Virus genome (UHGV): UHGV-0378151
Direction: 5' to 3' (one strand)
From: a virus
DNA length: 6,071 bases
This document shows, piece by piece, positions 2,706-6,027 of this stretch. Position 1 is the stretch's first letter, and each line of letters begins with the position of its first letter. The notes beneath the pieces were generated by a model. That model was not told where the DNA came from. It did no database searches and worked only from the letters and a program-made list of their open reading frames with translations. A program made the position numbers and the translations under genes.

Positions 2706-2912
2706 ATGGCTGAAGAGAAAAAAGGCGGTGTTTCGGTGTACATAAGCCCCGACATCGTGAAGGCGCTCAAGGAACGCCACCAGCAGAACGTAAAAGCAGG
2801 CATTGCGGCAGGACTTGATCCGCTGGCGATGGTTGAGCCGTCAACAGGCTGGCAGGTACGCGCCTATTTACGCGCGGCGCTGGGTATGAATCAGGTTCAC
2901 GGGGGTGAATAA
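2706..2912 (+). CDS. Hypothetical 68-aa protein, first gene of capsid operon (possible ribbon-helix-helix fold)
   Basis: ORF track. Its TAA stop overlaps the capsid gene ATG as TAATG at 2910-2914. The segment VSVYISPDIVKALKERHQQ has a strand-then-helix pattern, but this is only a guess. Confidence 0.5.
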   Translation: MAEEKKGGVSVYISPDIVKALKERHQQNVKAGIAAGLDPLAMVEPSTGWQVRAYLRAALGMNQVHGGE

Positions 2913-3967
2913 TGACAGTAAAAGCAATATCACTTAACACTAACCAGCTTTTTGCGTACCTGAATCGCGAGGATATTGCGGAATTTAAATTCAGTCCGCT
3001 GTTTACCGCGCTGTTTTTCCCGAACGTGGCGACATTCAACACACAGGACATCATGTTAGATAACCTGGATATTGAAGAAGTCACTATGTCGGCGTTTTGT
3101 TCGCCTATGGTGGGTAGCCAGGTTCAGCGCGATAAAGGGTACGAAACAAGCATTATTCGCCCTGGCTACATGAAGCCAAAACACGAAATCGATCCATTAA
3201 AAACAATAATGCGCATGGCTGGAGAAGATCCAGCACAGCTTAACGACCCTACCTACCGCCGTATGCGCCTGATTACTGGCAACATGCGCCGCCAGATAAA
3301 CGCCATTAAAGCGCGCGTGGAATGGCTGGCGGTAAATGCGGTAACGACCGGAAAAAACATCATTGAGGGCGAAGGCATAGAGCGCTATGAAATCGACTGG
3401 AAGATACCGGAAAAAAACATCATAGAGCAGGCCGACGGTAAAAAATGGTCAGAGCAGGACAAAGACATACACGACCCAATCTATGACATTGAGCTATACG
3501 CAGATCAGGCAGGTTGCCCCGCAAACGTCATGATTATGGGCGTTGATGTATGGCGCATGTTACGCAGCTTTAAAAAATTCCGTGAACTGTACGATCTCTC
3601 CCGTGGTTCAGAATCCGCCGCAGAGCTGGCATGTAAAAACCTGGGAGAAGTGGTGAGCTTTAAAGGCTATCTTGGTGATCTGGCCCTTATCGTCTATTCC
3701 GGCAAATACACTGACAGCGACGGCACAGAAAAATATTTCCTTGAGCCTGATTTGCTGGTCCTGGGCAACACCAACAATAAAGGGCTGGTGGCCTATGGTG
3801 CGATTATGGAACAGGAAGCGGTAAGAACGGGCGCAACGCAAAACATGTTTTACCCGAAAAACTGGATTGAAGACGGCGATCCGGCGATTGAGTACGTGCA
3901 GACACACAGCGCACCGCAGCCTGTTCCGGCAGATATTCGCAAATTTGTTACCGTCAAAATTGGTTAA
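2912..3967 (+). CDS. Major capsid protein, lambda gpE family
   Basis: 351 aa, colinear with lambda gpE as I recall it: FKFSPLF..LFF, RPGYMKPKHEIDP, EDPAQLNDPTYRRMRLI, WRMLRSFK, SFKGYLGDLALIVYSGKY, LVLGNT, YPKNWIEDGDPA, and a SAP...KI C-terminus. Similar length to gpE (341 aa). Confidence 0.9.
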   Translation: MTVKAISLNTNQLFAYLNREDIAEFKFSPLFTALFFPNVATFNTQDIMLDNLDIEEVTMSAFCSPMVGSQVQRDKGYETSIIRPGYMKPKHEIDPLKTIMRMAGEDPAQLNDPTYRRMRLITGNMRRQINAIKARVEWLAVNAVTTGKNIIEGEGIERYEIDWKIPEKNIIEQADGKKWSEQDKDIHDPIYDIELYADQAGCPANVMIMGVDVWRMLRSFKKFRELYDLSRGSESAAELACKNLGEVVSFKGYLGDLALIVYSGKYTDSDGTEKYFLEPDLLVLGNTNNKGLVAYGAIMEQEAVRTGATQNMFYPKNWIEDGDPAIEYVQTHSAPQPVPADIRKFVTVKIG

Positions 3968-3978
3968 CGGTGGATTCT

Positions 3979-4314
3979 ATGAACACTCCATACATTGAGT
4001 TATTTGCAGGCAGTCAGCAGGTATCAACGACGCTGGTACATTTTGCCGCTGATGCTGGCGTTATTCAGGAATTTACCCCGCTGATGCTGGCGGACAATGG
4101 CGAGTTTAAGCCGTGGGATGGTCAGGAATCTGGCAAGGCTGTTTATCTGACCTCGTACCCCGTTGACACGTCGACGCAGAAATCAGCACAGTGCTATAAG
4201 ACGGGGATATTCAATATCGCCGCCGTTAACTGGCCTGAGAGCGTCGACACCGATGCGAAAAAATGCGCCGCCTTTGCGGGTTCTGGCGTATCCGTTCAGC
4301 CGCTGGCCCGATAA
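3979..4314 (+). CDS. Head decoration protein, lambda gpD family
   Basis: TPLMLADNGEFKPWDGQESGKAVYL...CYKTGIFNIAAVNWPESVDTDAKKCAAFAGSGVSV matches lambda gpD [27 protein letters not shown]...[35 protein letters not shown]. ATG 3979 preferred; the in-frame GTG at 3970 used by the track is an alternative. Confidence 0.85.
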   Translation: MNTPYIELFAGSQQVSTTLVHFAADAGVIQEFTPLMLADNGEFKPWDGQESGKAVYLTSYPVDTSTQKSAQCYKTGIFNIAAVNWPESVDTDAKKCAAFAGSGVSVQPLAR

Positions 4315-4326
4315 GCAGGGGGAACG

Positions 4327-4740
4327 ATGGCAACGAATGAAAGCATCATGGCGCTACCGCTGGCGAGTAAATTTAAAGCCGAAGCGCGGGCAATGGCTGA
4401 CAGAGGGTTATCAACCTACGAGGCCGTATATCAACTCAACAAACTGGAAGAACAGGACAAGCCGCGCGCTGATGCGATTATGGCGCTTCATGAACATAAC
4501 GACTATCAGCCGCTGTTACGTGCAATGGCAAACGTGCCATGTATTAGCGTCGATAATGCTCGTGAAATCCTGAACATGACCATAGAGCAGGAGCGCCCAA
4601 AGGTTGCACCAGAGCTTACCGCAGCCTTTGAAAACTTTATGGACATGCACAGCCCGCAAGCCGTATCAGCTGGCATGGCATACGATGGCAGAAACCAGGG
4701 CGATGACGGCGACATCGATCACATACTGAAAACCATCTGA
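4327..4740 (+). CDS. Hypothetical 137-aa acidic protein, positioned where lambda has FI after the capsid gene
   Basis: ORF track. SD AGGGGGA at 4316-4322. No recognisable similarity to lambda FI or any other family; the functional guess is positional only. Confidence 0.5.
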   Translation: MATNESIMALPLASKFKAEARAMADRGLSTYEAVYQLNKLEEQDKPRADAIMALHEHNDYQPLLRAMANVPCISVDNAREILNMTIEQERPKVAPELTAAFENFMDMHSPQAVSAGMAYDGRNQGDDGDIDHILKTI

Positions 4741-4745
4741 GACAA

Positions 4746-4770
4746 GGCCGGAGAAATCCGGCTTTTTTTT
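4746..4770 (+). terminator. Rho-independent terminator
   Basis: GGCCGGA-GAAA-TCCGGC hairpin followed by T8, directly after the stop at 4738-4740. Near-identical to the hairpin at 2472-2493. Confidence 0.75.
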
Positions 4771-4947
4771 ACGGGTCCTTTCCGGCATATGGACCCGTTA
4801 CGGGGCGGCGACCTCGCGGTTTTTCGCTATTTATGAGCCTTTTCAGGGGGGTGGTGGTGGTTTTGTTGTTTGATCTATCTTTATGAATGAAAAGGGAAAG
4901 ATGCAAGCAATACACCAACCTGAAGCAGTAATTAAGTTGGTGTATTA
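4771..4947 (+). other. cos site 1 (plus orientation): lambda-type cosQ and cosN with a divergent cosB
   Basis: ACGGGTCCTTTCCGG...TTACG / GGGCGGCGACCT / CGCGG-TTTTTCGCTATTTATGA is almost base-for-base the lambda right-end/left-end junction as I recall it. The 12-nt cohesive-end sequence GGGCGGCGACCT is at 4803-4814. Downstream of about 4835 it no longer resembles lambda cosB. A perfect 9-bp inverted repeat TACACCAAC (4911-4919) / GTTGGTGTA (4936-4944) ends 3 nt before the ATG. Confidence 0.8.
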
Positions 4948-5490
4948 ATGAAATCTCATCTGATGAACAAAAAAAACATGGCGAAAAGCTGCCGTGTAAG
5001 TGCGACAGCGTTCGACAAGTGGGGAGTAACTCCCGTTGAGCGTAAAGGCCGTGAGGCGTTTTATGATGTTGCCAGCGTGATAGAAAATAGGGTTAACAAT
5101 GCAATTAGCCAGCTTATAAACGACAAAGGCGAGATTGACGATGATGAACTTTTACGAGTCAGGATCAGATTACTGACAGCACAGGCAGAGGCGCAGGAAC
5201 TTAAAAACGATCGCGATCGCGGTGACGTGATTGATACTGAGTTTTGCCTGTACGCGCTTTCAAAGCTGGCGAGTCAGATTTCATCAATCATGGACAGCCT
5301 CCCGCTTACTATGCAAAGGAGCTTCCCACAGATTACCCCCGCCATGCTGGATAGGCTTAAAAGGGAAGTGGTTAAAGCCTGTAATGCCAGTGCCAGAGTT
5401 GCCGACAACCTCCCACAGATACTGGCTGATTACTTGAAAGAAACAACCGGAAACGTACCGGAAAAGTTGCTACAGAAGAAAGGCGAGTAA
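4948..5490 (+). CDS. Terminase small subunit, lambda Nu1 family
   Basis: Colinear with lambda Nu1: N-terminal region (KSCRVSATAFDKWGV vs ADIFGASIRTIQNWQEQGM) and strongly in the C-terminal half (LTAQAEAQELKNDRDRGDVIDTEFCLYALSKLASQISSIMDSLPLTMQRSFP vs LTRAQADAQELKNARDSAEVVETAFCTFVLSRIAGEIASILDGLPLSVQRRFP). Alternative start at ATG 4963. Confidence 0.9.
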   Translation: MKSHLMNKKNMAKSCRVSATAFDKWGVTPVERKGREAFYDVASVIENRVNNAISQLINDKGEIDDDELLRVRIRLLTAQAEAQELKNDRDRGDVIDTEFCLYALSKLASQISSIMDSLPLTMQRSFPQITPAMLDRLKREVVKACNASARVADNLPQILADYLKETTGNVPEKLLQKKGE

Positions 5491-5712
5491 CAGACGCGCA
5501 ATTATTGAACAAAACTGAGAAACGACATGAAAGCGTCATAAATCGCCATTTTAGATGATTACCGTGTCGTTTCTTTTTATTGTGTATCTATTTAAAAACA
5601 AATAGTTATGTTCGAGAAGTACCGACATGCTTTTTCCAGAAAAATTTTCATAAACAGATAAAAACCGCGAGGTCGCCGCCCCGTAACGGGCCATAATTCC
5701 AGGAAGGACCCG
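5491..5712 (-). other. cos site 2 (minus orientation): lambda-type cosQ-cosN plus lambda-like cosB
   Basis: Reverse complement of 5661-5712 reads CGGGTCCTTCCTGG...CCCGTTACGGGGCGGCGACCTCGCGGTTTT, with a perfect match of about 30 bp to cos1 (4794-4823). Continuing on the minus strand, TTTATGAAAATTTTC, CATAACT and the inverted GAAACGACA (5519-5527) / TGTCGTTTC (5565-5573) motifs track lambda cosB closely. Complement of the cohesive-end 12-mer is at 5670-5681. Confidence 0.8.
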
Positions 5713-5745: not shown

Positions 5746-6027
5746 ATGACAGAAGCCGAAATACTGGGATTAATCCGCCGCGTTGCCGGAATCAGCCAGC
5801 AGGTTGACGAACAGGCCACGCAGCCGGACAGCGTGATCGCCGAAAATTACGCGCGTGTTGTTGCTGATGTGATGCGCCGTGATGGTATTGAGCTTAACGG
5901 CGTGGATATGCGCGACATACGGATCAGATTCCTTGAGTTGCTGGCCTACCGTCGCCGCGTGGAGATGTATCGGGAGAAGGAGAAAATAACGTACCACTGG
6001 AAGAAGCCGGAGCGGTTGCGGCGGTAA
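5746..6027 (+). CDS. Hypothetical 93-aa protein
   Basis: ORF track. Basic, helical-looking composition; GGGGG 4 nt upstream of the ATG. Preferred over the overlapping minus-strand ORF 5770-5997 because it is longer and follows the operon strand. No family recognised; not similar to the lambda gpA N-terminus. Confidence 0.45.
   Translation: MTEAEILGLIRRVAGISQQVDEQATQPDSVIAENYARVVADVMRRDGIELNGVDMRDIRIRFLELLAYRRRVEMYREKEKITYHWKKPERLRR

Follow-up and report, generated by a model that had tools for sequence, protein, structure and literature searches.

Gram-negative phage-inducible chromosomal islands (PICIs) spread virulence and defence genes, and the only mechanism of packaging redirection worked out for them so far is that of Rpp. 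In islands of the EcCICFT073 type, Rpp is encoded after the first cos site, cos1, binds the N-terminal domain of the small terminase subunit (TerS) of the phage and steers packaging towards cos1 (Fillol-Salom et al. 2019, PMC6739421), acting through a heterocomplex with the phage TerS (PMC6739421). The Rpp proteins are 139-154 residues long and are without the C-terminus that binds the large terminase subunit, TerL (Murialdo and Feiss 2022, PMC9026076). In EcCICFT073, there is no terS; of its two cos sites, each gave some transfer when cloned (PMC6092414). Here we analyse a satellite island of the same family in which the gene following cos1 encodes a TerS related to Nu1 of phage lambda: terS, at positions 4948..5490 (plus strand, 180 residues) of UHGV virus genome UHGV-0378151, the whole analysed stretch of which, 6,071 nucleotides long, is referred to below as the window. 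The satellite TerS probably binds a region adjoining cos1, cosB1, and recruits the TerL of a helper phage, which would be the strategy of the pathogenicity islands found in Staphylococcus aureus (SaPIs) in a cos/Nu1 form and a functional alternative to Rpp. The terS cassette is a common alternative solution at the rpp locus.

A stand-alone TerS on a PICI is already known, and its existence is not what is new. Homologs of terS occur in some Gram-negative PICIs, including the islands of E. coli IHE3034 and 18098 (Fillol-Salom et al. 2018, PMC6092414), and SatelliteFinder counts five core components of PICIs, of which 'small terminase' is one and 'capsid' another (10.1101/2022.09.14.508007). Partnering of a SaPI TerS with the helper TerL is an established paradigm, as the work of Ubeda 2007 is related in PMC6739421 and PMC6092414. 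By these accounts, the SaPI protein is, like that of the window, a satellite-encoded TerS homolog without a TerL, and it reads the packaging site of the satellite and partners the helper TerL to redirect packaging, as the window TerS may also do. SaPI TerS is part of a headful (pac) system and comes from another TerS family, whereas the window TerS is a Nu1-family protein that would act on a lambda-type cos site; no Ppi-like inhibitor was identified as its companion in the window island. We found no experimental study of a Nu1-family TerS from a cos-type PICI in the literature. What is new here is the sharing of one slot by terS and rpp, the mosaic make-up of the protein, the covariation of its winged helix-turn-helix (wHTH) with cosB1, the resemblance of the second cosB to that of phage PhiR5_1, the co-occurrence with a class of prophages and the ratio of non-synonymous to synonymous substitution rates (dN/dS) of the gene.

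A Nu1-family TerS encoded without a large terminase

The product of terS matches Phage_Nu1 in Pfam (PF07471; E-value 3.2e-23, 82.6 bits against a cutoff of 30) and 'terminase small subunit' in PHROG (PHROG 57; 8e-53, residues 1-174), and residues 3-180 of lambda Nu1 align to it with 36% identity, confirming the Nu1 homolog that a sequence-only reading of the locus had recognised at 4948-5490. The homology extends along the full length of the protein, with 45% identity to the N15 protein and 36-40% to that of lambda, and none of the 50,697 phage records searched contains a TerS more than 60% identical to it. With N15 gp1 and lambda Nu1, the window TerS shares the PF07471 domain, the domain order and the cos-proximal position of the gene. 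A search of the PDB with the single sequence matched neither lambda Nu1 nor RppC (6HLK); a profile of the satellite clade matched lambda TerS 1-98 (6HN7_B; E-value 0.007, positions 6-84) across the wHTH and helix alpha3. An AlphaFold2 model built on a 30-sequence alignment (pLDDT 61.7, pTM 0.27), from which only the secondary structure was used, predicts helices at residues 8-14 and 19-24, two short strands, a helix at 41-54 and then three long helices.

No large terminase was found among the ten plausible proteins of the window, and when TerL of lambda, of N15 and of PhiR5_1 served as tblastn queries against the window and four complete related islands, every hit had an E-value above 3 and none revealed a gpA-like sequence, whereas the positive control gave 90% identity over 640 residues. 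In those phage relatives whose annotation was visible under the match, terS overlaps or abuts the large terminase gene; in the window, none follows. Nor does the window merely stop short of one: in the related islands, the element ends at chromosomal genes 0.6-1.2 kb past a 93-residue open reading frame (ORF) that lies downstream of terS. The view of terS as a stand-alone gene, which had been advanced together with the proposal to look for a gpA-like ORF elsewhere in the element, therefore holds. A gpA gene directly downstream defines the phage operon and not the PF07471 protein family.

The gene is widespread and under purifying selection. The module comprising both cos sites, terS and the 93-residue ORF was recovered with at least 80% query coverage from 484 of the 5426 complete E. 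coli genomes in our collection, and the N-terminal two thirds of the window type of terS were detectable in 721, such that the cassette is present in roughly 9-13% of complete E. coli genomes, O157:H7 included, with an intact terS ORF in hundreds of them. The overall dN/dS of terS is ~0.18, ranging by segment from 0.03 to 0.32, the C-terminus included. These values come from more divergent alleles, which were fetched because terS is identical at the DNA level in the window and in the related islands L001 and L002, precluding the calculation from these three.

Covariation of the wHTH with cosB1 and the terS/rpp slot

Immediately upstream of terS lies cos1, the core of which (4772..4843, plus strand) aligns with lambda cos and forms the left arm of a 72-nucleotide inverted repeat. 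It includes a cosQ-like GGGTCCTTTCCGG (4773-4785) and, in the lambda orientation and 133 bp before the terS ATG, the cohesive-end sequence of lambda, cosN GGGCGGCGACCT (4803-4814). The putative satellite-specific terminase-binding region, cosB1 (4815..4947, plus strand), carries an R3-like GGTGGTGGTGGTTTTGTTGTTTG (4850-4872, +48 to +70 from cosN); further on, an inverted R2/R1-like pair, AATACACCAAC (4909-4919) and GTTGGTGTATT (4936-4946), ends 1 nucleotide before the ATG. The cosQ-cosN-cosB-terS arrangement is thus canonical, with the R3-, R2- and R1-like elements at lambda-like distances in a layout that mirrors the R3...R2/R1 order of lambda. In sequence, cosB1 resembles the N15 cosB (GAGGTTGTTGTTTAAT) but has no blastn match in the phage records and differs from the cosB of lambda, of PhiR5_1 and of a helper proxy discussed below (L160), its companions cosQ and cosN being lambda-like.

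The type of wHTH co-varies with the cosB of cos1 in every locus examined. A GGTGGTGGTGTTGTTGTT-type cosB stands at the same place in all six loci with a window-type wHTH, namely the window, L001 and four satellites embedded in prophages of other Enterobacteriaceae (L019, L021, L024 and L025), the wHTHs of which are 72-76% identical to that of the window; the same element is also kept in islands L164 and L165. In the cq9 island (L014), TerS has a PhiR5_1-like wHTH (76%) joined to a window-type C-terminal half (76% and 65%) with the same C-terminal extension, and the cos1 of this island carries a PhiR5_1-type cosB, of the same sequence family as the second cosB of the window. Finally, an island with rpp (L003) has ACCACCACC at the cosB position of cos1, at the same distance from cosN as GGTGGTGGT in the terS island. 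This three-way covariation is the strongest evidence obtained here for a reading of the cos1 cosB by the N-terminal domain.

Two observations on these sites stand apart. The proposed Rpp recognition element ACCACCACC (+55 to +63 from cosN; L003 ~6157-6165) is the reverse complement of GGTGGTGGT, which the terS-type islands have at nearly the same distance from cosN (window 4850-4862), so that Rpp and TerS may read related DNA in opposite orientation. The cq9 island, for its part, has a differing cohesive-end region (L014 19500-20600), CCGGGGGTACGTGTACGCG instead of GGGCGGCGACCT.

The protein itself combines parts of different affinity. It consists of an N15-like wHTH (residues ~6-50), a linker helix (~51-86), a self-association segment (~87-126), a PhiR5_1-like equivalent of the gpA-binding domain of lambda (~127-166) and a clade-specific extension of 13-14 residues, TTGNVPEKLLQKKGE (167-180). 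When it was compared by segment with three phage TerS proteins, in lambda numbering, the wHTH (lambda 1-55) was 58% identical to that of N15, 42% to lambda and 37% to PhiR5_1; the corresponding values were 49%, 51% and 66% for the self-association segment (lambda 100-140) and 31%, 32% and 48% for the gpA-binding tail (lambda 141-181), a region in which lambda and N15 share 80%. The window TerS has the short-wing wHTH of N15 and its linker deletions, as well as a similar cosB motif, but departs from N15 and lambda in its tail (~31% identity) and in the C-terminal extension; in the C-terminal half, its closest relative is the Nu1 of PhiR5_1, with which it has the TPAMLD motif in common. Judged by these identities, the window TerS is a mosaic that joins an N15-like module for DNA binding to a C-terminal half resembling that of PhiR5_1. 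It had been thought that the C-terminal half was the best-conserved part of the protein and the N-terminal DNA-binding region the more divergent one. The former applies to the self-association segment (~50-66%) but not to the TerL-binding tail, which is the least conserved part relative to lambda and N15 (~31%), and the latter is contradicted by the wHTH, the best-conserved part relative to the closest phage relative, N15 (58%). Within the satellite clade, too, the wHTH evolves most slowly (dN 0.01-0.03) and the tail fastest (dN 0.16-0.26).

Modular exchange is not confined to satellites. In PhiR5_1-type terminase operons of E. coli prophages (rows H195-H207), Nu1 has breakpoints at nucleotides 63 and 145, which join differing 5' ends to one 3' end and gpA; the wHTH module is therefore exchanged among phages as well. 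Such exchange of wHTH and cosB provides a natural data set on the evolution of lambda-type terminase specificity.

The position of terS is that of rpp in sister islands. L003 and the window are collinear over two stretches, one running from the capsid genes through cos1 and the other from the second cos site, cos2, through the 93-residue ORF, and between its cos sites L003 encodes a 146-residue protein that matches RppC (6HLK) at 2.4e-31. The window TerS has no detectable similarity to this Rpp (BLASTP, E-value 2.8). In collinear islands, terS and rpp are therefore alternative cassettes at one locus. The known Rpp proteins (RppA/B/C; PDB 6HLK, 6HN7) are encoded in the same island family and in the same slot right after cos1, followed by cos2 and the 93-residue ORF, and they also have an N-terminal wHTH presumed to read a PICI-specific cosB. 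They differ from the window TerS in size and in what is retained of TerS, having 139-154 residues and no TerS C-terminal region, whereas the window protein is a full-length Nu1 homolog of 180 residues; Rpp acts by binding the N-terminal domain of the phage TerS, whereas the window TerS keeps a full Nu1-like C-terminal half. The proposal of the sequence-only reading that the mechanism is related to but distinct from known redirection proteins is thus sound with regard to Rpp, to which the window TerS is dissimilar in sequence, length and C-terminal half, but, given the SaPI TerS paradigm and the terS homologs already known from PICIs, the mechanism is not of a new kind.

The window, L001 and L002 carry the same 543-bp terS, letter for letter, and L163 departs from it by a single synonymous base, although islands sharing this near-identical gene are only ~92% identical to each other and occupy three attachment sites (tqsA, tRNA-Pro and phoQ). 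The near-identity of the gene in such islands indicates that the cos1-terS cassette, as far as the sequences tell, was recently exchanged between islands by recombination.

Mode of action and candidate helper phages

Packaging redirection is the most plausible role of the satellite TerS. In the mechanism that we consider probable, TerS and the adjacent cos1 would form a self-contained packaging-specificity cassette: the N-terminal wHTH would bind the satellite-specific repeats of cosB1 (GGTGGTGG... / GTTGGTGTATT), and the Nu1-like C-terminal half would oligomerise and recruit a gpA-type TerL from a lambdoid helper, for which a PhiR5_1-like phage is the most plausible candidate; this TerL would then cut the lambda-type cosN of cos1.

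The candidate helper is suggested by two independent features, the C-terminal half of TerS and the cosB of the second cos site, both of which point most plausibly to PhiR5_1-like lambdoid phages. The inverted cos noted earlier after terS is indeed present, with a copy of cosN at 5670-5681 and the 93-residue ORF at 5746-6027. Its core, cos2 (5641..5712, minus strand), converges on cos1 and forms the right arm of the inverted repeat (arms 4772-4843 and 5641-5712, 72 nucleotides, 82% complementary); it also includes a cosQ-like sequence (~5699-5711). The interval of 179 bp between the terS stop codon and the cosN of cos2 is occupied by a phage-style cosB, cosB2 (5491..5669, minus strand), with an R3-like GCATGTCGGTACTTCTCG (~5614-5631), followed by an A/T-rich I1-like spacer, an R2-like arm AAAGAAACGACA (5565-5583) and an R1-like arm TGTCGTTTCTCAG (5509-5527), all on the minus strand, the inverted R2/R1 pair carrying GAAACGACA. 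Over 105 nucleotides, cosB2 is 80% identical to the cos region of PhiR5_1, compared with 71% identity to lambda. Elsewhere, the cos2 of the Rpp island has the exact N15-type motif, and that of cq9 a third R type (CAGATCCTTTCT).

Junctions of Nu1 and A of the PhiR5_1 type were found, with at least 80% query coverage, in only 38 of the 5426 genomes. Among the five genomes that have the best window-like islands, three (STEC17-183, NCTC9112 and DETEC-S792) carry the junction at 100% identity, and a PhiR5_1-type terminase is present in 5 of ~67 sampled genomes with a terS island. The co-occurrence of PhiR5_1-type prophages with window-like islands is suggestive only. We found nothing relevant on PhiR5_1 in the literature. 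The PhiR5_1-like helper class, the three natural strains carrying both partners and the defined repeats of cosB1 are leads that can be tested.

Further evidence on helpers comes from relatives of the window TerS at 57-58% identity, which belong to PICIs embedded in their helper, within the gpE gene of lambdoid prophages of Citrobacter, Enterobacter and metagenomes (L157 1702-12534; L008-L013), a configuration described in PMC10111431. No helper-embedded example of the window TerS subtype was found in the E. coli collection. The prophage that harbours L019 is represented with an empty site by L158/L160, which match its flanks at 98% identity and lack exactly the 10.8-kb element, showing that the related element is a discrete insertion of this size. 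L158/L160 serve as a proxy for the Nu1 and A of the actual helper of L019, and their phage Nu1 is of the lambda type. L021, inside a lambdoid prophage, pairs a window-type wHTH with a C-terminal half of the lambda type (66-68%), which is what matching of the C-terminus to the helper would predict. Thus, the TerS tail matches the helper in some satellites and not in others.

Several points weigh against direct recruitment of the helper TerL by the satellite TerS. The segment equivalent to the gpA-binding domain, although alignable and helical, is only 31-32% identical to that of lambda and N15 and 48% to that of PhiR5_1. L019, the one satellite whose helper is known, gave no support for matching: the tail of its TerS is only 37% identical to the C-terminus of the helper-proxy Nu1, and those of L024 and L025 are 24-34% identical to the Nu1 of L158/L160, and from this mismatch in L019, L024 and L025 it follows that binding of TerL through a homologous interface is something that we can only infer. 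The co-occurrence sample is small, non-random and uncorrected for phylogeny, and most genomes with a terS island are without a PhiR5_1-type prophage. The TerS structure model is of low confidence (pLDDT 62). Finally, mitomycin C induction brought about no transfer of the TerS islands that IHE3034 and 18098 carry, and no helper was identified experimentally (PMC6092414).

The mismatch of the tail favours an explanation that we regard as considerably less probable than direct recruitment, and which comes close to the hetero-complexes with the helper terminase of the sequence-only reading. Here, the satellite TerS would co-assemble with the helper Nu1 through its central self-association segment, without itself binding TerL; the satellite wHTH would read cosB1, the helper TerS subunits would supply TerL, and recognition of the phage cos would be blocked while packaging is redirected. 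Such a heterocomplex would account for the self-association segment being the part best conserved relative to helper-type TerS (46-66%), with the TerL-binding tail faring poorly (24-48%), and for the C-termini of L019, L024 and L025 being unlike the Nu1 of the L019 helper proxy; terS sits exactly in the slot of rpp, and Rpp works via a heterocomplex with the phage TerS (PMC6739421). However, purifying selection acts on the C-terminal 54 residues (dN/dS 0.19-0.32), and these include a conserved clade-specific extension that is common to proteins with differing wHTH types, which would be unexpected for a tail without a partner; Rpp does without such a tail entirely (PMC9026076), and the lambda-type tail of L021 inside a lambdoid prophage also speaks against the heterocomplex.

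A related and similarly tentative possibility, to which we give slightly less weight still, is a system with two keys and exchangeable modules, in which the TerS or Rpp of the island reads cos1 and is swapped together with its cosB, the native terminase of the helper reads the convergent helper-type cos2, and TerS may co-assemble with the helper TerS as Rpp does. If true, this would constitute a second, evolutionarily independent route to heterocomplex-based redirection and would explain why the TerL-binding tail is mismatched with that of a known helper.

It is unlikely that TerS serves mainly as an interference factor, titrating the TerL or TerS of the helper and lowering its yield, with packaging proceeding from the phage-like cos2 by the helper terminase. 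The complete phage-style cosB of cos2 (R3/I1/R2/R1), with its 80% identity to the PhiR5_1 cos, would suit this role, as would the finding that both EcCICFT073 cos sites, when cloned, supported some transfer (PMC6092414). Yet L164 has only a truncated cos2 and L165 a degenerate one, both islands retaining cos1 with its R elements, and deletion of cos2 raised the transfer of EcCICFT073 (PMC6092414), for which reasons cos2 looks like an accessory helper-type cos, dispensable to the island family; the strict covariation of the wHTH with the cosB of cos1 likewise argues that TerS reads cos1. Interference with the helper might accompany direct recruitment.

That the cassette is an inert relic, a decaying prophage fragment or a hitch-hiking gene of captured phage DNA without current function, is very improbable: its resemblance to a piece of a lambdoid left end, the absence of an encoded TerL partner, the lack of observed experimental transfer of TerS-type E. 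coli islands (PMC6092414) and the disrupted or mis-assembled primase gene of the window are outweighed by the intact ORF in hundreds of genomes with a dN/dS of ~0.18, the identity of terS to within one base in ~92% identical islands at three attachment sites, the PICI architecture (int, alpA, primase, no tail or lysis genes) and the discrete insertion revealed by the empty site.

The island and its other genes

Comparison of gene content with complete relatives places the window among the Gram-negative PICIs of E. coli, as the right half of one such island. In the complete relatives, the order is int, an alpA-type helix-turn-helix (HTH) gene, Icd-like genes, DUF4222, primase, in some cases a gene for SSB, and PerC, followed on the head-gene side by a gpE-like capsid gene, a gpD-like decoration gene, a 137-residue ORF, terS and the 93-residue ORF; the window contains the 3' part of the primase gene, SSB, PerC, the gpE-like and gpD-like genes and terS. 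Membership in the PICIs was judged by the presence of int, an alpA-type regulator and a primase or replicase in ~10-12 kb, without tail or lysis genes, and L001, L002 and L014, which are located at tqsA or tRNA-Pro, have the integrase, the alpA-type regulator and the primase and no tail or lysis genes. At the right flank, L001 has tqsA (a remnant), L002 and L014 have the tRNA-Pro/yejM-narP region, and L163 has phoQ; the right boundaries seen in relatives with the identical terS include an autotransporter pseudogene, then narP. The 93-residue ORF (5746..6027, plus strand) is the last gene of the island, matches PHROG 1561 and has no Pfam match; it is kept after cos2 in terS-type and rpp-type islands alike.

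The head genes lie at window 2912-4314 and encode a gpE-like major capsid protein (351 residues, PF03864) and a gpD-like decoration protein (114 residues, PF02924), with no portal or protease gene alongside them. Capsid genes are common in PICIs and, according to the literature, dispensable for the transfer of EcCICFT073. Capsid-forming PICIs (cf-PICIs; 10.1101/2022.09.08.507074), compared here by their published description, are likewise satellites with head genes and TerS, but encode the head and packaging set in full, with genes for head-tail adaptor and connector proteins among their markers, whereas the window island has only the gpE-like and gpD-like genes, the small 137-residue ORF and TerS. 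Gene content ruled out the reading of the window as a cf-PICI, as it did that of a prophage remnant.

The 137-residue ORF (window 4327-4740) matches PHROG 1999 and also positions 494-567 of the 583 of PHROG 53, head maturation protease; the matched C-terminal end of PHROG 53 is the region encoding the lambda Nu3 scaffold, and the ORF may accordingly encode a scaffold-like protein. Its RefSeq labels vary between hypothetical and head-tail connector. Its place is taken by a 127-residue AlpA/HTH-type protein in L164, in L165 and in the embedded satellites. The capsid-gene block is closed, just upstream of cos1, by a terminator-like hairpin with a T-run (4744..4765, plus strand; 9-pair stem with 5 GC pairs). 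A scan for sigma-70 promoters gave no promoter-like site near terS, and no RNA family of Rfam was found in the window. The genes adjoining terS in the embedded satellites are variable (FRG, DUF3892, a TIR-domain protein and a CoiA-like protein) and have the look of defence cargo.

At the left end of the window, primase residues 218-467 are encoded on the minus strand (bases 1-751) and residues 430-584 on the plus strand (743-1207), and the stretch 741-857 recurs as its reverse complement at bases 1-117 (98.3%), forming a head-to-head inverted partial duplication. Homology of the window to the related islands begins at 743. The inverted duplication at 1-857 is either a foldback assembly artefact at the end of the contig or a disruption of the primase gene.

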